From NCBI GenBank assembly GCA_964574655.1, contig CAZNOH010000004.1, forward strand, positions 2,046 through 66,045: a stretch of 64,000 bases of DNA, given 5' to 3'. A model generated the notes under the pieces. The model was not told the origin of the DNA and ran no database searches. It saw only the letters and a list, made by a program, of their open reading frames with translations. Positions 46-53,310 of this stretch are shown here, piece after piece. This DNA comes from an uncultured Candidatus Saccharibacteria bacterium. Its GTDB lineage: Bacteria; Patescibacteriota; JABMPQ01; JAQVVF01. The position numbers and the translations under genes were made by a program. Within the stretch, counting starts at the first letter, position 1, and each line of letters starts with the position of its first letter.

Positions 46-3000
46 TATTAGCAAGTTTTTTTAATTCTAAATTCTGGCTGATAACTCCTTCTCTATCTCC
101 GCTAATATCTATTTTGTGCTGAGGCAATTCATAGCCTTGCTTTTGAGATGTAAGGACATATTTATCCTTGCCGACTAAGAAACCATAACGTCCATCTCCT
201 TTAGAAATATCAGCTAAAAGCATTCTTCCATACTTATTATCAAATAGCCTTATAACTGCTTGCGGTAAGGCCTTGTGATTGCTTTGATCAACTGTTTTGC
301 CCCATGAATTTTGACGCTTAACCGCTAATTTTCTGAATACTAGCAATAATATGATGTCAAATACAAAGAGTGCTCCGGTTAGAATGGATGGACTAATGAT
401 TAAGCAAATTAATCCAACGATCGGACCAAATATCGCAACGAAATGATTAAATTTGTGTTGCTTTAAGACTTTTAATAATTGACTATCTGCTTTTTTGATG
501 ACTTCTTTTGGCAGGGTTTCTAAATCATTGATATTTTTAATTGGCGTGGTGATAACTTTTGATGGATTGACTGGATTCTGGAGATAGCCTTCTTGAGGAT
601 CAAGAGGAATATCAAATGAAACAACACCTTTTTCTTTTTGATCATTGCTGGATTGCACTGAGATTGTTTCACCGATATAAGTATTTTCTGCTTTTTTTGT
701 TAGCAAGCGAGAAGGAAACATATAGTAGGATTTTGCAACTGTTATAAAATAATCTCCGGGATCAACAATGAACAGATAACGGCCTTGAAAATCGGTAATT
801 CTGGTAGCTAAAAGCTTGTTAGTATTTTTATTAAACAATCTAACGATTGCCAAATCAATTGGCTGTTTGGTTAATGAATTATAGACAATTCCCCATCTTT
901 TTCTTTTGCCAAAAAATAGAACTGGATGAGTGATGTATTGCAAAAGATATGCTAAATATGGAAGCAAGGCATTAACAAAAGGAACTGCAGCTAAAAGACC
1001 TAGGGCTGTTATCGCTGTCATGATCGGAGCAACATATTTTTTTGCAATTTCTTGCAGGGTCTTATTTTCAAGAAACTTTTGGATATCTTTGATTATTTTG
1101 ACGGTACCATCAATAATATTTTTTGGTATTTTTTCTTCTATAATCTTTATAATTTCAGGTTTTTTTGGTTCCGGCTTTTTTGGTTCAGGTTTTGGTTTTA
1201 CTGGTCCGCCAAATGCAGAGCCAGAAACTGTGTTAGAAACAATATTACTTTCAGTAAATATTATACCAGGATTATAACTGCCAATGCCCTTATTTTCGAT
1301 AACGGTTCCGAAAGGAACAAAATTGTTTACTTGAACTTGGAACTGAATAGAGCCAGAAGTATTTGGATTGACTTGACCTAAATCGACAGTGATTGCGCCT
1401 GGATTTGTTTGATTATAATCTGTATTGTCATTATCTCTAAAATCTGAACGGCTAGCTCCATTTACTACAATCGAATTAGCAATATAACGAGTTGATGAAG
1501 AAATCGGATCAACTACTCTTAAATCGGTAGTTTCTTTTGCCCCTTGATTTGAATAGTCAATTCTGTATGTAATAAAATCACCGCGTGAAATTGCAGAAGC
1601 TCTAGTTCCAATTCCTATAAATAATTCAACTATTAAACATAAAGCAATAATAATTGAAACTGTTGAACAGAAAGCTTTCTGTTTTTTGAATAAATATCTA
1701 AATGTTTGCGATAACTTTCTTCTATTCTTAAAGAAGGAAATTATAAAATAAACAAACGAAACTACTGACCAGAATATTATGATGATAAATAATATAAGAC
1801 TAGTTTTTGATTTTATATTGAAATTGCTAATAAAAGACGTTGCACTTTTAAGCATTGAACTGCCGCTGCTTGATGCACCAGATGCAATTGGCGAGATGCC
1901 GTAAGTTTTTGTAAGTGAAATAAATGGACTTGTTGAAGTAATAATGTATAGCTCGGTATGAACTCCTTCTTTATTACCTGCTCCATCAACACCAAAAAAT
2001 TTTAAGGTAGTATTTTGACTGATCAATATTTTGCCATCATAAACGTTAGAATTTTCTGTTGGCTCTCTGCCATCTGTTGTGAAATAAATTGTGGCTGGTT
2101 TGTTTGAAGATAATGTAACTGCTTGCGGATTATCATAAACTCCACCTTGCGGATTAGCTTGTGTTTCTGGAGCTTCGTAGTCAAAAGTATAAACCTCTTC
2201 TTTTGTGTCAGAAACATTTCCGTATAAATCATTGCCGTAAAACTTTAAAGTAGTATTGCTATTAATATGAATAGCGCCAAGATAATTTGTTCCATTTACT
2301 TTTGGATCGTCGCCATTTGTCGTATATTTAATTTTTCCAATTTGTTCATTAGCTGTAAGCGTAACACCGATCGGACCATTGAATGATCCACCGCGCGGAT
2401 GAGCAGTGATTATTGGTGCGGTGAAATCTAATGACACGGTTGTTGATTTTGTGCCAATATTGCCAGCTGTATCTCTAGCAGTTGCAACAACTGGATCAGC
2501 ACCTTCATTTTCTGTGCCTTGAACACGATAAGAATATCTGATTGATTGAGCGCCGGCTTGAGCATTGTTTGTGGTTGCAGAATTGCCATCTACTGTCACG
2601 GTTGGATTTTCTGACTGAGTGCCATTTATACTGACCGTGATTCTAAGCTCAGTATTTTTTCTACCACGACTTGGCAATACAGAAACATTGCTAATGACTG
2701 GCGCGACATTATCAAGACTGAAGCTAGCAGAAGAAACTGCTGTGCCATTATAAGCCAAGTCATTTGGCGTGACACGAATCATCACACTATTTGAACTAGT
2801 ATTTGGAAGATTAGATTTTGAAGTCCAAACAACATTAACTGTGTTTGGGACTGAAGATGTTGTAGTTGTAATATAACCGGCAGCTGTACCGACTTGATAG
2901 TCAGCGCTATTATTTATCTTTGGATCGCCATAAGTTGCAGTTGTATCTGCGTCAGCTGTTGATAATGTAACTTTGTCGCTCCATGTAGCACCGTTGTCTG

Positions 3001-4317: not shown

Positions 4318-4487
4318 ATACAATTTCGATTTGAGATAAAATTGAGGATAACTTTTCAGTCTTAATTTTCAATTTCTAATTTCTAATTTTTATTAAATTT
4401 TTAATTAACTAATTTCTAAACATCGACGACAGAAAAATATTTAAAAATTTAAACATTAAGAATTTATTAGAAATTGAAAATTAGAAA
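4318..4487. repeat. AT-rich imperfect palindrome (aatttctaatttcta vocabulary) with GC core catcgacgacag at 4421-4432
   Basis: Left arm near 4361-4420 is the reverse complement of right arm near 4458-4497; same architecture as 29276-29400 and 31399-31486. Confidence 0.6.
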
Positions 4488-5780
4488 TTAAAAATTCGTT
4501 CTTTGCCACTCTGCACTTTGACGAACTAACAGTTCTTGAGCTCTCTCTGGTTCAGCCATTAATTCTTTAGTTATTTTTTCCATTCTCATGCTTTGAGATC
4601 CTTTTATCAAAACTAAATCACCTGATTTTAAGATTTTGTTTTGAACAAAAAGTCCGGCTTCTTCTGAATTTTGAAATGTAAAAACTTTGTCTTTTGAAAA
4701 GCCAAGACTGATTGCTTCACTTGCAATATATTCGGATGCTTTGCCAACTGCGACAATATAATCTGCAGATTGAGAAGCTAATTTACCTATATCTTTATGG
4801 GCTTCAACTGTTAATGCGCCCAACTCTAACATGTCGGCTAGGCAAGCTATTTTTCTGCCAGATGTTTTTATTTCTTTTAAAGTATTTAAAGCTGACAACG
4901 TTGCTTCTGGAGAAGCATTATAGGTATCATCAATCAGATAAGATCCTTTAATGCCTGGAATTAGATTCATTCTGCCTCTTGGAGCTTTATAATCAAATAG
5001 CAGTTCTGAGATTTCAACTAAATTAATTTTCATTGAGATTGCACATGCAGCTGCTGCTAAAACGGCATAAATTTGAGTTTTACTAAAAATATTTTTCAGC
5101 CTGACTGGAACTTCTTTGCCTTGATAGCGCATTTTAAAATTATAGCCTTGCAAACTTTGTCCTTGAGAAAAATCTGCATTTAAAGATAAATTATCTGCTT
5201 GTAATTCTGATCCTTTAATAAAACCAAAAGTAATTGTTTTTGCTTTTGTTTGTTTTGCTGATAATCTGACGGCAATATCATCATAATTCAAAATTGCAGT
5301 ATCTGCTGAATTTAAGCAACTGATTATTTTTGCTTTTTCTAATAATAACTCTTTTGGACCTTTGAAAAATTCGACGTGAACTGGCCTTTTGCCGATAGCA
5401 GTTATAACAGAAATACTTGGCTTTGCTAAATCTAATAGATAATCCATATCATTCGGCTTGTCAACACCCATTTCTAAAACTAAAATTTTTGGATAATTTT
5501 TTGAACGAATTTGTTTTAGTCCAGAATTAAAAATCTTAAGCCAGCCAATAAGCGAACGGTTAGCTGTTTTTTTACCAATTATTGTTAACGGTAATCCGAT
5601 TTCATTATTATAATTTCCGATTGTTTTTCTGACAGAAAATTTATTTTTCAAAACATGATAAATCGCCTCAACTGTTCCAGTTTTTCCAACACTGCCAGTA
5701 ACGCCAATGATAATTGGTTTTTGATGTTTAATTATTGATTTCGAAATATTTCTTAATATTTTTTGGAGAATAGACTTCAT
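4488..5780 (-). CDS. murF: UDP-N-acetylmuramoyl-tripeptide--D-alanyl-D-alanine ligase (Mur ligase family, MurF-like)
   Basis: Mur ligase P-loop GVTGSVGKTGT; MurF-type IDDTYNASP motif; position in the dcw cluster. Confidence 0.8.
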   Translation of the reverse strand: MKSILQKILRNISKSIIKHQKPIIIGVTGSVGKTGTVEAIYHVLKNKFSVRKTIGNYNNEIGLPLTIIGKKTANRSLIGWLKIFNSGLKQIRSKNYPKILVLEMGVDKPNDMDYLLDLAKPSISVITAIGKRPVHVEFFKGPKELLLEKAKIISCLNSADTAILNYDDIAVRLSAKQTKAKTITFGFIKGSELQADNLSLNADFSQGQSLQGYNFKMRYQGKEVPVRLKNIFSKTQIYAVLAAAACAISMKINLVEISELLFDYKAPRGRMNLIPGIKGSYLIDDTYNASPEATLSALNTLKEIKTSGRKIACLADMLELGALTVEAHKDIGKLASQSADYIVAVGKASEYIASEAISLGFSKDKVFTFQNSEEAGLFVQNKILKSGDLVLIKGSQSMRMEKITKELMAEPERAQELLVRQSAEWQRTNF

Positions 5781-19264: not shown

Positions 19265-19427
19265 AAATTTGAAATTAAATTACAAATCCCAAATTCCAAA
19301 CAAATCACAAATTCCAAATTACAAAATGTTTGAATATTACAATTTGCAATTTGTTTGGGATTTGGAACTTTTTTATTGGTTATTCGATATTGTTATTTTA
19401 CCAGAATAACAAAAATGAGACAATAAA

Positions 19428-26592: not shown

Positions 26593-26649
26593 CGAACCTA
26601 TAATAATGATTACGTATAAGCACTATTATTATAACGTAGATTTTAAAGG

Positions 26650-26780
26650 ACTGAAATCCTAAATCCCAAATCCCAAAAAACAAACAAATTACAAATCACA
26701 AACTACAAAATTTGTTTCTTGGTTTGTTCTTTGTAATTTGGGATTTGTTTGGAATTTGGAATTTGTTATTTCGTCTCTTT
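26650..26780. repeat. AT-rich palindrome (caaatcc/ggatttg vocabulary)
   Basis: cctaaatcccaaatcccaaaaaacaaacaaattacaaatcacaaactacaaaatttg mirrored by ttgtttcttggtttgttctttgtaatttgggatttgtttggaatttgg; related copy at 19265-19380. Confidence 0.55.
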
Positions 26781-26921
26781 ATGCATTGCATGCTTCTTGC
26801 ATTTCTTGCAGAATTTTTTAATCTCAATTTTATTTTTAAGAACTTTCTTATTCTTGCGAGAATAATAATTAATTGATTTGCATACTGTGCATTCTAGTTT
26901 GATGAGATTATCTTGTGGCAT
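26766..26921 (-). CDS. rpmG: 50S ribosomal protein L33
   Basis: Not in the ORF track (51 aa): MPQDNLIKLECTVCKSINYYSRKNKKVLKNKIEIKKFCKKCKKHAMHKETK; L33 Cys4 zinc ribbon. Confidence 0.75.
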   Translation of the reverse strand: MPQDNLIKLECTVCKSINYYSRKNKKVLKNKIEIKKFCKKCKKHAMHKETK

Positions 26922-26998
26922 CGTGGTTGAAAATTAAAAGTTTTATAATTAACCTCAGTATAAGTAAAAAAAATGATTTGGTCAAGGAATTTTGGAAA

Positions 26999-27080
26999 TT
27001 GGAGCGTCAGAACTTCGGAGCGTCAGAGCGTCGGACGTTACGCCGTTCTGACGCTCCGATTTCCGACGTTCTGAAGCTCC
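26999..27080. repeat. 80-nt imperfect inverted repeat (ggagcgtcagaac / gttctgacgctcc) at the left boundary of the high-GC island
   Basis: ttggagcgtcagaacttcggagcgtc ... gacgctccgatttccgacgttctgaagctccaa. Confidence 0.5.
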
Positions 27081-27091
27081 AATTTACGAAT

Positions 27092-27215: not shown

Positions 27216-29069
27216 TCAGCCGCCGTTGCCCTTCAGCCGTGGCTTGGCGCTGATCTGCTCGACCGGCTGACCATTGAGCCAGGCGGCCGTCTCGTCCGGC
27301 GTGGCCTCGTTGCTCTGCCCGCTGCCACCCTCGTTGCCGTGGGTGCCGCGCGGGTTCCTCTTCTGGATCGCGCTGCGGACCTGCGGCCCGTCCGGGTTCT
27401 TGGCCATGTACTTCTCGATGCGCATCTTCAGCGTCATCGTCCACAGCTTCCCGATGGCCAAACTGCCGTCCCGCCAGCTGTCATGCTGGTCCTGGGACAT
27501 CTCGTACAGCTCCGCGGCTTGCTCGGGCGTGAGGCTCGAGTCGCTCTTCAGCTTCTCGACGATGAGCTGCTTGCGCAGCTCCATCGCCTGCCACGCCTCC
27601 CACGCCGTCAGCACCACCAGCCGAGGCACCCAGAACTTCCCGCCGCCCTCGGCCTTCTTCAGTCGCCCCTCCTTGTCCACGACCCGGACCGGCACGATCG
27701 CCGTCCGGAAGAGGGGCTTGTTTTCCCGCCCGTAGGTGGTGAGCTGCGTCCCCTCTTCGCTGTTGTTGGGGTTGTCGCTCTTCACCATCAGGCCAGGGTC
27801 GGCCCGGAACCTCTCCAGGTCACCCCAGGACCGAGAGATTTCGGCCGTATTCAGCTTGCCACCGATCAGCCGACGCAACCACTCGATCGTGGCCTCGTGT
27901 TCCTTGTGCTCCTCGCTCGGCGCGGTCTCGGGGGCCAGCTCGATGAGGTCGGCGAGGTCGTCCACGACGCCCTCGACGTACTCGGCCTTCTTGCCCGCCG
28001 CTTCCTTCGCCCGCTGCTCCATCTCGGCGATCTGCTGACGCTCCCACGTCTCGCGGTTGATCTCGTGGATGTTCTTGAGCAGCTGCCATGCTTCCGACCC
28101 GCGGTACTTCCGGCTCTTCTCCATCAGCTCGACACGGAGCGCATCCATGCACTCCTGCGAGAGCTTGCCGGCCAGGGTCTCCGCGTTGCGCTCGTCCTTG
28201 AACTCGGGGTGGTGCTCGGCCATGATCTTGTCCCACACCGCCCACGAGCCTTCGACCATCTCCTTCTCGCGCTTGCCGGCCCACCGAGCCCACTTAATGT
28301 AGCCGTCCTTGTAGGTGAAGCTCAGGGGCTCCCGCAACGCGGGGTTTTCCCGGTTCAGGAGCGGCCGTAGCAGCTTCATCCCCGTCTCGATCTTGCCCAG
28401 CACGGGCATGCAGATCGCCGGGGGCTGCTGGTCCTTGTTGAAGTACCCCGGCTTCAGCTTCTTCATGAGCTGGACGACGGTACCTCGCTTGTCGCCCTGG
28501 GACAGGTGGATCTCGCTCATCGCGATCACCACGATGCCGTTCGGGCTGAAGGCCTGGTTCTCACCGAGCTGATCCGACACCACGAGCACCTCTTCCGGGT
28601 GGAAGAAGCACCCGACGGCCTTCGGGTAGTCCGGCTCGCTCGCCTTGTGGTAGTCCTCGTTGTCCTTCTCGCGCTGCTGCCGGTTGCGCTCCCGCGCGGC
28701 CTTCCGCCGTTGCTGCCGGGCGCGCCTCATGTCCTGCTTCTCCTGCCGGGTGAGCGGGCGCCCGACCTTGGCCTCCTCGGCCGCCTCCTCGGCTTGGGTC
28801 TCCTGCTCGTCCTCGTCGTCCCCGTCCTCGACCACGACGCCGTCCTCCACCACGGGGGCGGGGGGCTCGGCGACGGGCTGCTCGGTCACGATCTCGGTCT
28901 GCTCGGTCTTCTTGACGCGGGGCTTGCGCACCCGCTTCGGCTTCTCGACCTTCTCGGGCTCAACCTGGGCCTCCTCGGCCTGGGTCTCGCCATCCTTCAC
29001 CTCCTTCTTCTGCTCGGTGTTGTTGACGGTGATCTGGGAATCGGTCTTGGGTCCGCGCTTCGTACTCAT
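27216..29069 (-). CDS. Hypothetical 617-aa protein, about 65% GC: N-terminal ~140-aa charged disordered region (KPKRVRKPRVKK) then a large alpha-rich globular region; no recognised family
   Basis: Single long ORF with strong codon periodicity; RBS aGGAGGgtagaagag-ATG; own promoter-like TTGACA...TATAAA and own terminator; the plus-strand ORFs over it are high-GC artefacts. Confidence 0.6.
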   Translation of the reverse strand: MSTKRGPKTDSQITVNNTEQKKEVKDGETQAEEAQVEPEKVEKPKRVRKPRVKKTEQTEIVTEQPVAEPPAPVVEDGVVVEDGDDEDEQETQAEEAAEEAKVGRPLTRQEKQDMRRARQQRRKAARERNRQQREKDNEDYHKASEPDYPKAVGCFFHPEEVLVVSDQLGENQAFSPNGIVVIAMSEIHLSQGDKRGTVVQLMKKLKPGYFNKDQQPPAICMPVLGKIETGMKLLRPLLNRENPALREPLSFTYKDGYIKWARWAGKREKEMVEGSWAVWDKIMAEHHPEFKDERNAETLAGKLSQECMDALRVELMEKSRKYRGSEAWQLLKNIHEINRETWERQQIAEMEQRAKEAAGKKAEYVEGVVDDLADLIELAPETAPSEEHKEHEATIEWLRRLIGGKLNTAEISRSWGDLERFRADPGLMVKSDNPNNSEEGTQLTTYGRENKPLFRTAIVPVRVVDKEGRLKKAEGGGKFWVPRLVVLTAWEAWQAMELRKQLIVEKLKSDSSLTPEQAAELYEMSQDQHDSWRDGSLAIGKLWTMTLKMRIEKYMAKNPDGPQVRSAIQKRNPRGTHGNEGGSGQSNEATPDETAAWLNGQPVEQISAKPRLKGNGG

Positions 29070-29275: not shown

Positions 29276-29400
29276 AACTTTTAATTTACAATTATCAATT
29301 ATCAATTTTCAATAAATGACCAATTACCAATTTTCAATCCGACGACAACTGTCATTGTAAATTGATCATTGAAAATTTATTGTAAATTGGAAATTGATAA
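29276..29400. repeat. AT-rich palindrome (aattatcaatt vocabulary) with core ccgacgacaac
   Basis: Arms mirror around 29339-29349; native-style element separating the two high-GC cassettes. Confidence 0.55.
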
Positions 29401-29553
29401 TTTTTAAACGTCCGCCTCAAATAACAATGTATCCATTATTATTTCAGGTGGTGCCACAGAAAATGTGGCAAGAAAAGGTACTGGGGGATGGAATGTGGGG
29501 TTCGCTGAAGTGCTTGGGTGAGTTACTAGGCTCGTCGCTTGATCAGGTCAGGC

Positions 29554-29772
29554 TCAGCCCGACTTGGATCCCCGCGACTTGCCCTTCGCGCTGAGCTCCT
29601 GCGAGGTCTTGCCGGCACCAGCGACGACGGCGCCACGTGCCGGGGCCAGGTCACCGACGGCGACCTCGCCAAGGTTCTTCTCCTTCGTCTTCGCCTTCGC
29701 CGGACACATGCCCTTGCCATGCCGGTCGCCTCCGCTCTGAACTCGCTGGTGACAGTAGATGCAGTTCGACAT
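29554..29772 (-). CDS. Small 72-aa high-GC protein with CxxCH...C zinc-ribbon-like N-terminus and Lys-rich tail
   Basis: agaaGGAGGaaaagtcgcg-ATG; MSNCIYCHQRVQSGGDRHGKGMCPAKAKTKEK...; the ORF track places the start 18 codons upstream, but the SD-positioned ATG is at 29772. Confidence 0.5.
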   Translation of the reverse strand: MSNCIYCHQRVQSGGDRHGKGMCPAKAKTKEKNLGEVAVGDLAPARGAVVAGAGKTSQELSAKGKSRGSKSG

Positions 29773-29832
29773 CGCGACTTTTCCTCCTTCTCTCGAGTGA
29801 CTCTCTATTGGTCCCCCTCCCCGCAAACGTGA

Positions 29833-29999
29833 CTGAGATAATAGCTAATAGTTGATAGCTAATAGTCGTTCTATTAGCTCTTAGCTATAAGCTATTATCA
29901 CGATTCCGTCCATTTATTAGAGGCCGAAATGGCTCGGCAAGGACTAAAAAAGATTAATTCCCTGGAGACCATTTCACCTCCTCTAATAGATAGACGGAG
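29833..29999. other. Structured non-coding segment: atagctaatag palindrome (29833-29906) then a 19-nt inverted repeat (tccgtccatttattagagg / cctctaatagatagacgga) enclosing a ~55-nt core
   Basis: Perfect or near-perfect complementarity read directly; no ORF. Confidence 0.4.
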
Positions 30000-30338
30000 T
30001 TCGCAAGTTCCTAAAGTTATAAAGTTCATAAAGTAGGGACGAAACACTGCTTCGTCTGCGTTGATTGACATATTTGAAGTAAGCTTGATTTGAGCTTGAA
30101 CCTTGCATTATATTACTGTATTTTAACCGTGTCAAGGGTATTCTACACATTATTATGCTTTTTCATTGGCTACTACTACTTTTTGCTTTAGATAAGGCAA
30201 AAACAAAAATGTGCTTTATGGCACATTCTGTCTATTTTTACTGACATCTTATATAATATCAACTAATATATATTTCGCAAGCTTTTGTCTTCAAATTGCT
30301 AGTTTTTGCTACATATTACTCTAATCTGTTGAAAAGTC

Positions 30339-30366
30339 TTGACAAATTCTGCGGGTTTGATATATT
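30339..30366 (+). promoter_or_regulatory. Sigma70-like promoter TTGACA-16-TATATT
   Basis: ttgaca 30339-30344, tatatt 30361-30366. Confidence 0.5.
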
Positions 30367-30402
30367 ACTAAGTTATAAATTATCTTGATCTTTATCTATC
30401 TT

Positions 30403-30486
30403 AGAACAGGAGACAACGCCCGCATGAGGCGTGCTGTTCTCCTTCCCCCTGCGGAAGAGGAGGTGGCTATGGGCGACGGAGACTAG
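30403..30486 (+). ncRNA. Candidate small RNA or leader: GC-rich hairpin (30403-30440) plus GGA-rich tail with GGAGG and a 5-codon mini-ORF (ATG GGC GAC GGA GAC TAG, 30469-30486)
   Basis: agaacag-gagacaacgcccgcatgaggcgtg-ctgttct; five GGA motifs in ~85 nt; mid-GC unlike its surroundings; no downstream CDS on this strand. Confidence 0.3.
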
Positions 30487-30645
30487 ACGAAGTACGAAAG
30501 TTAAAAAGTTGTAAAGTTGAAGGTCAAAACGAGCGTCGCGGAGCAACTAAAAATGAATTCAAAATTTGAACCCTGGATCAAAAAGCCGAGCTTATGCCCG
30601 GTTTTATTTTGCTTGCGAGTTAAAAGTTAAATGTTAACAGTTAAC

Positions 30646-31398
30646 TTATAACTTACTTGCTGATTCCCATGCAAGATAGAATAAGGATCTTATCGTATTT
30701 GCGATTTCTTTATTTTCGATGATTACGCCGGATAGTTTGCCCTTCAAAGATGCAATGGCAACTTTATTATTATAAATTGTTAAATCTGAAGTAACCGGAT
30801 ATTTATCAAATGGAACAAATCTTCTCTCCCCTAATCTTTTTGGGCGGATAACTTCTCCTTTTACTGCAGTATAGATTGCATAGGTAGCAATTTTTTTTTC
30901 AGTTCTTCTTTCAGCAAATTCTTTGTTTTCTTCTGGCGTAAAAACTTTATTAAGATCATCAAGGCAATACATTGATTCTATTTTTTTGTCTGTTGTTTTT
31001 AAAAAATCTTCACGCATTGATAAAAGTCCTTGTCTGCCTTCAAAAAATCTAACTGTTGGTTTTTCAGTTGGTAAATTATATAATGCCTTGAATTCTGGCA
31101 AAATATTTTCAAATTCTTTTTGCTTTTGATCGATGTCTTCTTTTTGTTGGTGCAAAAGACTAACTAGCTTGTCTGGAGATTCAGCTACAAAATATGTTTT
31201 TTTATCTTTTTCGAAAGTTGTTACAATTCCTTTTTTTTGTAATGACTCTAAAATAAAATAAGCAGTTGGTCGATTGATCCCTGCTTTTTTAGAAATATTT
31301 AAAACTGTGTCATATCCCAATTCCAAAGCAGCCAAGTAAACTTTTGCTTCCTTGTCAGATAATCCTAGCTTAATAAGTTCTTGAGAGAGTAAAGACAT
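30646..31398 (-). CDS. TrmB-family transcriptional regulator
   Basis: N-terminal KLGLSDKEAKVYLAALELGYDTVLNISKKAGINRPTAYFILESLQKKGIV HTH. Confidence 0.7.
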   Translation of the reverse strand: MSLLSQELIKLGLSDKEAKVYLAALELGYDTVLNISKKAGINRPTAYFILESLQKKGIVTTFEKDKKTYFVAESPDKLVSLLHQQKEDIDQKQKEFENILPEFKALYNLPTEKPTVRFFEGRQGLLSMREDFLKTTDKKIESMYCLDDLNKVFTPEENKEFAERRTEKKIATYAIYTAVKGEVIRPKRLGERRFVPFDKYPVTSDLTIYNNKVAIASLKGKLSGVIIENKEIANTIRSLFYLAWESASKL

Positions 31399-31486
31399 GT
31401 TAAAAAATTTAAAAGTAAAAATTCAAAAGTTAAAAATATTCGTCGACGATAATTTTGTTATTTTTAATTTGAAATTTATAATTTTA
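31399..31486. repeat. AT-rich palindrome with core tcgtcgacgat (31440-31450)
   Basis: Third member of the CGACGA-core spacer palindromes. Confidence 0.5.
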
Positions 31487-32084: not shown

Positions 32085-32720
32085 TTTCCTTCTGATTGAT
32101 AAGTCTTTTTTTAGATTTCTGATTTTGTAGATTTCAGTTTGTGATTCCAAATCATTAGGATTCAATTTTACGGCTTGCTCGTATGCTGATTGCGCATCAC
32201 TCAGAATTTGTTGGATAAAATATATTTTTCCTAAACCTTTGTATGCAACAATGTCTTTTGAATCTTTTTTGATTAATTCTAAATAAACTTTCTCTGCTTC
32301 TTTGTATTCTTTTTTTCCGGTTAGAAGCTCCGCTTTCGCGCGAAGACTAATTGGAGATTTAGTTTCTGTTTTGGAAATTGGTCTTACAGCAGAAACAGAT
32401 TTTGGACGATTAATGATTAGTTTTCTAACTTCTTGCACAGATGCGCTGTCTTCCCTACTATCTTCCTTTTTAATTTTATCTTTAAGATTTCTTAAATTTA
32501 CAATCTTTGCAAAAACAGCCTGCATAATACTAACAGAAAAATCAATTATTGATTTTCCAGCTTTTTGAAATAATGATTTTTCTTTATTCTTATTCTCTAC
32601 TTTTATCTTTGCAACTTCGGGAAATTTTCTAGCGACAATTACAATAATACCAGCTAAAGCTAGAATGATAATTATTTCTGGAATTAAAGTTTGTAATGTA
32701 AACATTGCTATCAATTTCAA
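32082..32720 (-). CDS. Membrane-anchored TPR-like hypothetical protein
   Basis: N-terminal TM; C-terminal TPR-like helices. Confidence 0.5.
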   Translation of the reverse strand: MKLIAMFTLQTLIPEIIIILALAGIIVIVARKFPEVAKIKVENKNKEKSLFQKAGKSIIDFSVSIMQAVFAKIVNLRNLKDKIKKEDSREDSASVQEVRKLIINRPKSVSAVRPISKTETKSPISLRAKAELLTGKKEYKEAEKVYLELIKKDSKDIVAYKGLGKIYFIQQILSDAQSAYEQAVKLNPNDLESQTEIYKIRNLKKDLSIRRK

Positions 32721-32820
32721 ATTCTAAATTTTAAATTTCAAATTAATTTTAAATGATCGAATTTTAAAAATATTTTGAAATTAAGAAATTTGAAATTTAT
32801 TTAAAATTTTAAATTAGAAA

Positions 32821-33612
32821 TTATCTTTCGGGTAATTTTACTGTTATTCTTGTTTTGTCATCTAGTATTATTTCCAGGCTTCTAGTTAATAGATTTCGGC
32901 CGATAACTGTGCCGACGCCTTCTTTTGCCCTAACTCTTTTGCCAATTGGCGGAAAATCTTTGGATAATTCTTGATATAATTCTTTTTCGTATGCTAGACA
33001 ACAAACAAGCCGACCGCAGACGCCAGAAATTCTTTCAGAACCTCTTTGGACCATTTGCTGTTCACGAGCCATATCTGTTGTGATGCTAGCAAAATCTTTT
33101 AAGAAACGATTACAACAAAGCTCACGTCCGCAAAGTCCACAGCCTCCATATTTTGCTGCAACGTCGCGAGAGCCTACTTGTTGCAAGCGAATTGATTTTT
33201 GGAATTTTTTAGTTAAATCTTTTACTAACTCTCTAAAGTCAACTCTGCTCTCGGCTGTGAAATAAAAAATTATTTTTGATCCATCAAAAGCATAATTTGC
33301 CGCAACTATTTTCATGTCTAGATCATGTTTGCTAACTAACTCCTTGCAAACCTTTAATGTCTCGTCTTGCTTTATTTTATAGCTTGCTTGTTTTTCCAAA
33401 TCAGTTGTAGTTGCTTTTCTTAAGATTGTTTTTAAAGCAAACTCTAGCTTTGTTTCATCAACTTCTTTGTTTGCAAAAACAACCGTACCGATTTCTGTTC
33501 CTTGTTCGGTCTCGACAATTACCTTGTCTTCTTTTTCCAATAAAATATTATTTTGGTCAAAGTTATAGACTTTATCTAAAACGTTAAATTTTATTCCAGC
33601 TATGATCTTCAT
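32821..33612 (-). CDS. ricT: PSP1 C-terminal domain protein (YaaT/RicT-like)
   Basis: PSP1 fold sequence with Cys cluster GGCGLCGRELCCNRF...CGRLVCCL. Confidence 0.65.
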   Translation of the reverse strand: MKIIAGIKFNVLDKVYNFDQNNILLEKEDKVIVETEQGTEIGTVVFANKEVDETKLEFALKTILRKATTTDLEKQASYKIKQDETLKVCKELVSKHDLDMKIVAANYAFDGSKIIFYFTAESRVDFRELVKDLTKKFQKSIRLQQVGSRDVAAKYGGCGLCGRELCCNRFLKDFASITTDMAREQQMVQRGSERISGVCGRLVCCLAYEKELYQELSKDFPPIGKRVRAKEGVGTVIGRNLLTRSLEIILDDKTRITVKLPER

Positions 33613-33747
33613 AAAATTCTAAACTCTAAATTCTAAACCCTAAATAAATTCAAAATTCAAATTTCTAAAACTCAAAGATTTTAAAGCTTTTGGGTTTTGT
33701 TATTTGAATTTAGGATTTAGAATTTTGTATTTCTAAATAATTCAATA

Positions 33748-34446
33748 TTATTTAATAATAGTTCCAATCTTTTCACCTGCAATAACTTTTTTCAGATTGT
33801 CTTCCTTTTTAACATTAAAAACTACAATAGTCAATCCATTATCGCGCGCTAGAGAGAAAGCAGTCTGATCCATGACAGCTAATTTTTTAGATAGTACTTC
33901 GTCATAAGAAAGTTCATCATATTTTTTTGCATTTGGATTTTCATTTGGATCAGAATCATAAACGCCATCAACATTAGTTGCTTTTAAAACAATGTCACAA
34001 TTTGTTTGCAAAGCATGCAACACGGCACCAGTATCAGTTGAAAAAAATTGGTTACCAGTTCCTCCACCCATAATAACAATCTTTTTTTCATCCATATAAT
34101 GGATTGCTTTTCCAGGAGTGTAATATTGAATAATATAAGGCATGTAAATTTGCGATAGTGCCCTTGCTTCTTGATGTCCAAATTTATCAATTGCTTCACG
34201 CAAATTAATAGCATTCATCACTGACCCTAGCATTCCGAGATTATCAGCAATAGTTCTTTTCATTTCTTTTTCTTCCTTGCCACGATAAATATTACCAGCG
34301 CCGATTTCAACAATTACTTGCTTGCCCATTTTTACTAATTCAACAATTTGGCTAGCATATTTAGAAACTGTTTCTTGGTCGATTCCAAAATCTTTGTCAC
34401 CCATCATTAATTCACCTGATAATTTTAACATTATTCGATTGTACAT
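33748..34446 (-). CDS. pyrH: UMP kinase
   Basis: MLKLSGELMM N-terminal signature; amino-acid kinase fold. Confidence 0.85.
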   Translation of the reverse strand: MYNRIMLKLSGELMMGDKDFGIDQETVSKYASQIVELVKMGKQVIVEIGAGNIYRGKEEKEMKRTIADNLGMLGSVMNAINLREAIDKFGHQEARALSQIYMPYIIQYYTPGKAIHYMDEKKIVIMGGGTGNQFFSTDTGAVLHALQTNCDIVLKATNVDGVYDSDPNENPNAKKYDELSYDEVLSKKLAVMDQTAFSLARDNGLTIVVFNVKKEDNLKKVIAGEKIGTIIK

Positions 34447-37615: not shown

Positions 37616-38206
37616 ATGTCTCGCCAGGTTCCGGTGGATCAGTTCGAAGGGCTGGGGCTCCTGCCCCTGATCATCCTCGTAAAGGTGGCCGGAATCGGTC
37701 CCTGGATTGAGGCTCTGCTGCCCGAACGGCAGTACAACGCAGACGCGGTTGCCGCAAGGCGCCGCAAGGAGGCGGAGGAACTCGGAATCTCGTTCGGGAT
37801 CCGACGTGACGGGATGGATGACACAGGTTGCAACGTGATCTGCAACCGGCAATTCGTGTGGATCGACGCTCTTCTGGCGGGATTCGCCATGGAGAGATAC
37901 AAGATCACGGAAGCGAGCTGGTTCTGGCGCGAGGATGAGCGAGGACGGAAGCGCTTCCTCCAGCTCGCCTTCACCATGACCGGCGATGCTATTTCTCTAC
38001 CGAAACGTGTTTCACGGATGTTCGCCGTGGGCGTGGTTCCTTTCGTGAACGTCTGGGCAAACGTTCGCGAGAGTGGTGAAGAGCTGTTTCGGCTCGACAC
38101 CATCAATGTCCCTAGCCCCCGCATGAACGTGGTGGCCGAGGAGGAGTTGCACTGCAGCTTCTCTCCCGGTCGATACACCTACCTCACCACCGCTCCCCAC
38201 CGCTAG
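37616..38206 (+). CDS. Hypothetical 196-aa protein (GC about 58%; foreign cassette)
   Basis: RBS gtGGAGGtatgag-ATG; followed by the terminator at 38249-38278. Confidence 0.55.
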   Translation: MSRQVPVDQFEGLGLLPLIILVKVAGIGPWIEALLPERQYNADAVAARRRKEAEELGISFGIRRDGMDDTGCNVICNRQFVWIDALLAGFAMERYKITEASWFWREDERGRKRFLQLAFTMTGDAISLPKRVSRMFAVGVVPFVNVWANVRESGEELFRLDTINVPSPRMNVVAEEELHCSFSPGRYTYLTTAPHR

Positions 38207-40684: not shown

Positions 40685-40707
40685 CGGATAAAAAAAATTC
40701 GCCCATG
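40685..40707 (-). terminator. Hairpin ttcgcccatggcgaa followed on the minus strand by U8
   Basis: Read directly. Confidence 0.5.
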
Positions 40708-40759
40708 GCGAACTAAGAAATTTGTCCTTAGTCCGCCGTTTTCGTCATCCCATATTACC

Positions 40760-40822
40760 ACCCAGCACATAAATACGTTATGTGCATGGGAGGAAGGTAA
40801 ATGGTCAGAAAACGTGTGGTGT
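40760..40822. other. gcacataaatacgttatgtgc hairpin, then GGGAGGAAGG plus an 8-codon mini-ORF (ATG GTC AGA AAA CGT GTG GTG TAT TAG, 40796-40822)
   Basis: Twin of the hairpin at 15381-15400; mid-GC segment in the rpsB upstream region. Confidence 0.4.
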
Positions 40823-53179: not shown

Positions 53180-53310
53180 TTTTAATAGCTAATAACCAAT
53201 AACCAATAATCAACGAATAACCAATATCCAATAACTAAATAATCAAAGATCAAAATTGGTTATTGAAATTTGATTATTGATTATTCTTTGGATATTGATT
53301 ATTGGTTATT
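53180..53310. repeat. AT-rich palindrome (ccaataa / ttattgg vocabulary) between atpD and atpC
   Basis: aataaccaataaccaataatcaacgaataacc mirrored by ggttattgaaatttgattattgattatt. Confidence 0.5.

Follow-up and report, generated by a model that had tools for sequence, protein, structure and literature searches.

Background

Open reading frames (ORFs) of only a few codons are known from several systems. The bar minigenes of phage lambda and engineered minigenes consist of a Shine-Dalgarno (SD) sequence and an ORF of 2-6 codons and cause peptidyl-tRNA drop-off; the drug-inducible leader peptides of resistance genes include ermCL (MGIFSIFVI) and cat86L (MVKTD); and the dual-function small RNAs (sRNAs) SgrS/SgrT, RNAIII/hld and SR1/SR1P, as well as mccA (7 codons), specify products of 7-43 amino acids with defined functions. 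In fact, mccA shows that a gene can have fewer than 10 codons. The Patescibacteria have tiny genomes and, to our knowledge, hardly anything has been learned of their regulation and small RNAs. Here we describe an element with a five-codon ORF that is located between a promoter starting at 30339 and a terminator ending at 30610 of a 64,000-nt stretch of patescibacterial DNA (referred to as the window). A preliminary description of the window, made from the sequence alone, had proposed that the element specifies a CsrB-like decoy sRNA or a leader peptide.

Judged by sequence comparison, the element is one of a family of mini-ORF RNAs that had not been catalogued before; in diverse Patescibacteria its members lie past the end of trmB-like genes, to which they are convergent. 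On balance, we take it to be a stand-alone small gene, whose RNA of ~238 nt would carry a translated mini-ORF behind an SD that is probably gated.

Architecture of the mini-ORF unit

The unit lies on the plus strand and is preceded by a sigma-70-type promoter (30331-30366), which comprises a conserved upstream GAAAAGTC, a -35 box TTGACA (30339-30344), a 16-nt spacer, a TG (30358-30359) and a -10 box TATATT (30361-30366). The TTGACA-16-TATATT promoter of the preliminary description is therefore present as it was given, and it is in addition of the extended -10 type (TGn before TATATT). Including the TG it scores 11/12 and ranks second among the 22 promoter-like sites found in a 2.5-kb region. 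The best site of that region, a perfect 12/12, is a divergent promoter on the opposite strand (30135..30107), ~200 bp away. Taking the start from the position of the -10 box and the end from the T-tract of the terminator, the transcript would run from 30373 to 30610, its length of ~238 nt following from the presence of a bidirectional terminator that closes the unit ahead of trmB. This intrinsic terminator (30581-30610, active in principle on both strands and shared with the convergent trmB) consists of an A-tract, the sequence CCGAGC-TTAT-GCCCGG with a stem core at 30586-30601, and a T-tract; it was detected by a scan on the minus strand and by folding on the plus strand.

Within the predicted RNA, a conserved 5'-proximal block TTGATCTTT (30385-30393) begins after ~12 nt, and its TTGATC is invariant in the five full-length sequences that were aligned; the leader of the distant locus L070 also holds ACTTGATC. 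The central feature is an SD, AGGAGG (30458-30463), positioned 5 nt ahead of the ATG of a mini-ORF ATGGGCGACGGAGACTAG (30469-30486; ATG GGC GAC GGA GAC TAG, Met-Gly-Asp-Gly-Asp), both as previously noted. As had also been noted, no ORF follows the mini-ORF on the plus strand before trmB, and the next gene is convergent. A scan for tRNA and tmRNA gave no match within the element.

Conservation in closely related genomes

The close syntenic loci (denoted by L and a number) were retrieved via the TrmB protein and included L002 and L087-L090 (93% identity), L084 (86%), L085 (84%) and L086 (82%); TrmB homologues at 73-74% identity were left out because their contigs end before the element. The nearest assembled relative is the metagenome-assembled genome STF1_73 (L002), whose adjoining TrmB is among those with 93% identity. 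An identical copy of the region is present on an independent Logan contig (L001), which means that the element is not an assembly oddity of the window.

The mean column identity in the alignment of this clade was 60% and most of the intergenic DNA could not be aligned reliably. The comparison of the element itself covers four related lineages, represented by five more assembled contigs with an adjoining TrmB of 84-93% identity, in which the DNA around the conserved blocks is scrambled. Wherever the sequences reached, the -35 box, TGnTATAaT, TTGATC, AGGAGG, the start ATGGGCGA and CCGAGC...GCCCGG were invariant. More explicitly, the -35 box and TGnTATAaT are kept in L002, L087, L084 and L085, where the flanking DNA is only ~50-60% identical, AGGAGG is the same in the window and these four loci, and the terminator stem is unchanged in six genomes. 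The mini-ORF reads MGDGD-TAG in the window, MGDGD-TGA in L002 and L087-L089, MGD-TGA in L084 and MGE-TGA in L085. Given that both the stop codon and the length of the ORF differ among relatives while a stop persists, the early in-frame stop is maintained. The stretch between stop and terminator (85-140 nt) is occupied by an AT-rich, repeat-like sequence that differs from lineage to lineage; in the window it is represented by a variable AT-rich 3' segment (30487-30575, plus strand) that shows AAAGTT-type degenerate repeats around a GC-rich centre and can barely be aligned among relatives. A second small ORF before and through the terminator (MNSKFEPW...) was considered and rejected, as its frame is not conserved.

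In several relatives genes have been inserted between trmB and the terminator: L087-L090 have a 23S-rRNA-IVP gene at this place, and L084 has a gene for an IS200/IS605 Y1 transposase. The position of these insertions argues that the terminator travels with the mini-ORF unit, and the unit is fully conserved in these loci. The conservation pattern within the close clade is thus the opposite of that of a decaying gene remnant. It is this conservation in relatives, and not the statistics of the single sequence, that, on the comparisons made, is the strongest sign that the element exceeds chance.

Recurrence in distant Patescibacteria

The trmB loci of other Patescibacteria (73 of 79 loci, TrmB 27-55% identical, 2.26 Mb of two-strand sequence) were scanned using two patterns: a specific one, consisting of a strong SD, ATGGGNGA and a stop within 7 codons, and a generic one, consisting of a strong SD, an ATG and an ORF of at most 7 codons with any peptide. 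The specific pattern occurred at 9 sites in the 2.26 Mb, and 6 of these fell within the convergent 81-nt interval that lies 150-230 nt past the end of trmB, where 0.023 were expected. These positional matches encode MGDGD (L002), MGDEG (L005), MGDSGD (L006), MGESK (L016), MGE (L020) and MGDCG (L070), and L059 carries two tandem units farther out (MGDC and MGDL). In the distant lineages, which are labelled Kerfeld-, Falkow-, Sungii- and Moraniibacteria and have a TrmB that is 38-55% identical, the module of SD, ATG-GGN-GAN and early stop is found on the opposite strand, 160-210 nt beyond the trmB stop. The generic pattern was enriched as well, with 19 sites in the convergent interval of 100-450 nt versus 2.6 expected. 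Moreover, among the mini-ORFs that matched the generic pattern at 150-230 nt, 8 of 9 start with Met-Gly, versus 31 of 223 in the background (binomial estimate ~1e-6).

The first nine nucleotides of the ORF vary at third codon positions only within the subfamily formed by L005, L006 and L070 (GGT/GGA/GGC and GAC/GAT/GAC), and across the whole family all four GAN codons are used at the third codon. Such period-3 variation argues that the codons of the mini-ORF are read. The stretch containing the SD ahead of the ORF is largely conserved in the same subfamily, and none of the distant members lacks a strong SD. Upstream of most members, at a distance of 100-250 nt, there is a sigma-70-like promoter (12/12 in L016, 11/12 in L015 and 10/12 in L005, L006 and L070), and in each distant member a terminator shared with trmB follows the unit. 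In L005, L006 and L070 the leader is long and well paired, and these three loci also have a conserved, well-structured 3' domain in common.

A scan of a metagenome collection that does not contain this lineage, using SD plus MGDGD, yielded three loci, an outcome consistent with chance; two of these were the same TGG-containing sequence and the third (L083) is unrelated. On L083, a contig of 63% G+C, the sequence GGAGGAGGTGACC-ATG GGC GAC GGC GAC TAA (1171-1200, minus strand) specifies the same MGDGD mini-ORF and is followed by a GC hairpin and, ~110 nt later, by a membrane-like ORF of 123 amino acids, which is again consistent with a chance match.

Leader pairing and access to the Shine-Dalgarno sequence

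The leader hairpin region of the window (30403-30442, plus strand) contains an SD-like GGAGA (30409-30413), the complementary segments ACGCC (30416-30420) and GGCGT (30428-30432), and an anti-SD UCUCC (30438-30442). The 38-nt hairpin that had been reported, with AGAACAG (30403-30409) and CTGTTCT (30434-30440) as its outer arms, was located here, at 30403-30440. A common order of elements can be discerned in the clade of the window and in the L005 subfamily, though not in L016: an upstream GGAG or GAGG, a GC-rich hairpin or larger domain of which the sequence is not conserved, a CUCC or CCUC anti-SD, a spacer of 6-17 nt and the SD. In the relatives whose leader hairpin region was compared with that of the window, the CUCC-like element precedes the SD by 10-17 nt. 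In the window the anti-SD can be accommodated by pairing of GGAGA (30409-30413) with UCUCC (30438-30442) or of CUCCUUCC with GGAAGAGGAG, in L084 by pairing of CCUCUACC with GGUAGAGG, and in L005 by pairing of GAGGAU with AUCCUC within a long leader helix. The CUCC has two possible partners: pairing with the upstream GGAG leaves the SD open, and pairing with the SD closes it. Ribosome access is therefore probably gated, and the layout is that of a gated ribosome-binding site. The AUG was predicted to be mostly unpaired (0.83-1.00) in 7 of 10 leaders; lower values were obtained for L006 (0.52), L085 (0.47), L016 (0.37) and L070 (0.19). A long-range pairing of TTGATC with GATCAA was also considered and could be discarded, as it is absent in L084 and L085.

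Proposed function and alternative explanations

The sequence features, their selective conservation, the positional enrichment at trmB and the variation at third codon positions are direct observations. In the scheme that we propose to connect them, the strong sigma-70-type promoter (30339-30366) would drive the synthesis of the ~238-nt RNA, which would end at the bidirectional terminator (30581-30610) common to the unit and the convergent trmB-like gene. The selected core would be formed by AGGAGG, the 5-nt spacer and the minimal ORF: ribosomes would start at the AUG at 30469, make fMet-Gly-Asp(-Gly-Asp) and terminate, and the leader CUCC would switch between the upstream GGAG and the SD, opening or closing the latter. 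The most likely output would be a cis effect of the bound or initiating ribosome on the RNA, in the form of altered stability or of events at the shared terminator, with a minigene-type effect on the translation machinery as the alternative output. A bioactive peptide is less likely, given an ORF of no more than 3-6 codons whose length varies among members. A bolder version, which we put forward tentatively and with considerable reserve, holds that the units are among the shortest conserved translated genes and act, not by way of a protein product, but as a built-in minigene that senses or throttles translation (availability of ribosome, tRNA or Pth) or controls the neighbouring regulator.

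Several points weigh against a stand-alone gene with a gated, translated mini-ORF. The predicted probability that the SD is unpaired is 0.01-0.03 in L002 and L087, 0.05 in L070 and 0.29-0.52 in the others, and at -11.3 kcal/mol the clade has a weak consensus fold, the covariation term of which is unfavourable; given this weak thermodynamic and covariation support, the gating is to be read as an inference. Transcription and translation of the unit have likewise been derived from the sequence, and so has the output step that would follow translation. We know of no precedent for a 3-codon product as a functional peptide. The search expression detects the mini-ORF in only ~15 of the 73 trmB loci, and several members are interrelated, which reduces the set to ~7 independent lineages. 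In some members other peptides occur at the same position (MWSRG, MAGR, MGMGG, MGGR), so the consensus is a loose one. Finally, as all loci were selected via trmB, it cannot be claimed that the module is exclusive to this gene.

The constant association with trmB invites a different explanation, namely that the unit is a convergent antisense or transcriptional-interference regulator of trmB, which would direct RNA polymerase and, under some conditions, a read-through antisense RNA into the 3' end of that gene, with SD and mini-ORF only tuning RNA stability or read-through. In its favour, trmB is the sole conserved neighbour, it is always convergent and it shares one terminator with the unit, of which the plus-strand stem has a conserved A.C mismatch that corresponds to G.U on the trmB strand, so that termination on the plus strand may be weaker. 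We nevertheless regard this explanation as unlikely, considering the full conservation of the unit in the loci where an IVP gene or a transposase gene separates the terminator from trmB, and the preference for Gly-Asp/Glu codons, which it leaves unexplained. Coupling between ribosome and terminator is also improbable, as the stop is ~100 nt away from the terminator in the window, across a non-conserved stretch. The promoter-to-terminator architecture equally fits a gene for a trans-acting sRNA that base-pairs via its C-rich UCUCCUUCCCCCU (30438-30450) or via its 3' domain, with SD and AUG as a 5' stabilizer of the STAB-SD type. The CCC/CUCC motif before the SD is indeed kept in all members of the clade and the 3' domain is structured and conserved within L005, L006 and L070, but in the clade of the window no part is less conserved than the 3' segment; a stabilizer would need only the SD and not AUG-GGN-GAN with third-position variation and an early stop; and no target was identified, trmB lacking an SD to pair with. 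We therefore consider a trans-acting sRNA slightly less likely still than interference with trmB.

The remaining explanations go back to the preliminary description, from which the notion of a promoter-driven unit that is not an ordinary protein gene and has a meaningful SD and mini-ORF survives (these are kept in relatives together with promoter and terminator), whereas the functions proposed for it do not. A decayed 5' end of a lost high-GC gene or cassette, left with its promoter, untranslated region and first codons and now neutral, would account for the intermediate G+C content (~0.49-0.61) and the GC-rich codons, which resemble those of the neighbouring high-GC genes, and these genes likewise have strong promoters, strong SDs and terminators. 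This explanation is largely refuted and very improbable: promoter, SD, start, early stop and terminator are conserved amid scrambled DNA and up to loci where TrmB is only 38-55% identical, the module occurs in distant lineages without a high-GC island (e.g. beside holB in L005), and no relative has a long ORF that starts at the mini-ORF. Most improbable is a protein-sequestering RNA of the CsrB/RsmZ type. It was suggested by the five GGA triplets within 222 nt of a promoter-to-terminator RNA, a count that we could reproduce (30409, 30453, 30459, 30478 and 30540), but 12.5% of GC-matched windows of 90 nt carry at least 4 GGA, making the density not unusual, and only two GGA sites are conserved in relatives, both inside GGAG(G) SD-like motifs. 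The minimum free energy structure places GGA mostly in stems or in the SD and not in hairpin loops, and a stable multi-hairpin fold is absent: relative to dinucleotide shuffles the z-score was 0.04 for 30373-30612, 0.98 for 30400-30490 and 0.90 for the leader. The Csr/Rsm models of Rfam gave no match to the element even at E <= 10. In gathering mode, Rfam 15 returned only tRNAs in the window and seven related loci, and in E-value mode (E <= 5-10) nothing relevant was found for the element and two distant members; weak sub-threshold matches to Leu_leader on the element were driven by the terminator. By these searches the element matches no catalogued RNA family.

Genomic context

The window derives from an AT-rich genome of Patescibacteria/CPR (Candidate Phyla Radiation) with ~30% G+C, and the element is situated in a gene-free stretch of 1.5 kb. 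The convergent gene (30646-31398, minus strand) encodes a TrmB-family winged-helix regulator of 250 amino acids (Pfam PF01978, E = 2.6e-15), for which the PDB and NCBIfam matches to TrmB/TrmBL2 are confined to the N-terminal domain. Among the loci compared, all of which were chosen via trmB, no other gene keeps a constant synteny with the unit. The gap between the trmB stop and the terminator (30612-30646 in the window, 10750-11172 in L087, 10754-11650 in L084, and also in L091/L092) forms an insertion hot spot. The IVP of L087-L090 is a four-helix-bundle protein, and BLAST places a diverged version of window segment 30627-30644 on both its sides; the transposase gene of L084 is flanked by direct repeats of ~110 nt; and L091/L092 contain a co-directional ORF starting MRKTKFTTGMYYHIYNRG, putatively Y1-transposase-like as judged by reading.

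The neighbour on the far side varies by lineage and includes holB (L005) and a trmB paralogue (L003). In the window, unusual high-GC genes on the minus strand are found there. Genes of 60-70% G+C within the ~30% G+C genome are located at 27216-29069 (minus), 29554-29775 (minus) and 37616-38206 (plus), the last of these with a strong promoter, a strong SD and a terminator that could be read directly. The genes of 617 and 196 amino acids have fast-diverging but recognizable orthologues in L002, a clear L002 orthologue of the 73-amino-acid ORF was not established, and unannotated genes are present at the corresponding positions in L084, L087 and L088. Searches of Pfam and NCBIfam detected no domain in the high-GC genes, and a word search returned only two other homologues; for the 617-amino-acid neighbour it gave 3 including the query itself, which is uninformative for the element.

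Other structured elements are present in the window. Downstream of the 12/12 promoter, in the 5' untranslated region of the minus-strand RNA, a hairpin of ~95 nt is formed by 29904-29998 (z = -8.4 for 281 nt around it). L002 and L087 match it with 89-94% identity, and it persists in L084 and L085, where four pairs show compensatory changes. Its stem contains AGAGGAGGUGAAAUG; L085 has lost the AUG and shows a compensating change, and in L002 the frame is interrupted by an indel of 2 nt, so that the conserved entity is an RNA structure and not an ORF. The hairpin has no Rfam match. Between the divergent promoters, 30175-30246 holds the hairpins TTGCTTT..AAGGCAA and AATGTGC..GCACATT, the latter with compensatory changes in relatives, and the palindrome TGTCTATTTTTACTGACA (30229-30246); all of these are conserved in five relatives and may represent an operator or a terminator. 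Many intergenic regions furthermore contain a hairpin of 60-140 nt with arms made up of degenerate short tandem repeats, usually AT-rich. Examples are found at 4350-4496, 19284-19370, 26644-26781, 26987-27090, 29285-29407, 29837-29899, 31404-31485, 32719-32836, 33602-33751 and 53191-53310. Each has its own unit (AAATCCC, CAATTAT, TAGCTAA, AATAACC, GGAGCGTCAGA and others), and the repeat sequence differs in relatives at the same place, as compared around 30003-30063 and 30487-30575. A direct repeat of ~40 nt between 30480-30518 and 29988-30027 scored 21 versus 10.7 +/- 1.5 in shuffles; a trans-antisense pair with the divergent transcript via this repeat was rejected, as the repeat is absent in L002.

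The preliminary description had pointed to an analogous arrangement upstream of rpsB. The likeness does not hold: around 110 nt of this region (40695-40815) are nearly invariant in four genomes and well structured (z ~-5 on either strand), and the 8-codon ORF is not conserved, its ATG being GTG in L084 and the tails being different. On the rpsB strand the element ends in a palindromic TTCGCCCATGGCGAA hairpin and a T-run, ~95 nt upstream of the start of rpsB. Rfam gives no match to it, and it looks like a candidate leader or attenuator of rpsB-tsf or a separate small RNA.

Comparison with known systems

It is unusual for a promoter-to-terminator unit to have no conserved 'content' beyond a ribosome-binding site and three codons, and this one has persisted next to one regulator gene in lineages whose TrmB proteins share only about 40-55% identity. 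In the searchable literature we found nothing on small RNAs of Patescibacteria or on natural minigenes of this type, and both gene callers and Rfam overlook the conserved unit. If our interpretation is correct, the few known functional minimal ORFs would be joined by a new class, and the unit would provide a testable handle on translational control in uncultivated bacteria, as a promoter of sigma-70 consensus can be assayed in Escherichia coli.

Some generalizations can be made with respect to described systems. The CsrB/RsmX/Y/Z sponges resemble the unit as small, non-coding-looking RNAs with GGA triplets, but the unit fails their defining features. The leader-peptide attenuators (trpL, hisL, leuL; Rfam Leu_leader) share with it a promoter, an SD, a short ORF and an intrinsic terminator ~100 nt downstream. 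Unlike a classical attenuator leader, which was among the earlier proposals, the unit has 3-6 codons (G, D/E) without a regulatory codon run, no conserved alternative pairing that could serve as antiterminator was seen in the consensus fold of the clade, and no gene follows on the strand, which continues into antisense trmB or, in relatives, into an IVP gene or a transposase gene. The leaders of ermCL and cat86L come closer in that a very short, SD-led ORF is embedded in alternative SD/anti-SD pairings; here, however, there is no downstream resistance gene to unmask, the peptide is shorter and acidic, and conservation follows a housekeeping-type neighbourhood. In the case of a pure STAB-SD stabilizer, one may note that the SD of the unit is ~85 nt away from the predicted 5' end and is followed by a conserved AUG-GGN-GAN plus stop, which is more than such a stabilizer would require.

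The closest resemblance is to minigenes of the lambda bar type or to dual-function sRNAs, in the sense that by analogy the unit would work most like one of these. With the dual-function sRNAs it shares the organization of a small promoter-to-terminator RNA containing a small ORF, the translation of which is predicted in the present case; it differs from them and from mccA in that its product would have 3-6 amino acids, of which only Met-Gly-(Asp/Glu) is kept, and that there is no mccB-like partner gene. From the lambda bar minigenes (for background on minigenes see PMC2034473) the unit is set apart by being chromosomal and vertically conserved, with its own promoter and terminator, a structured leader and a fixed synteny with trmB. 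It also favours Gly followed by Asp/Glu where bar encodes Met-Ile, and sequestration of tRNA as peptidyl-tRNA, with Pth-dependent toxicity, is a trait of the minigenes, with which the unit was compared by its sequence layout. As to that layout, all members show AGGAGG-N5-ATG followed by another 2-5 sense codons and then a stop, which makes 3-6 codons if the start is counted. The unit thus has in common with the bar minigenes a strong SD at optimal spacing, an AUG, a few sense codons and a stop, with no conventional product, and any effect would in both cases go through the translation machinery and not through a protein.

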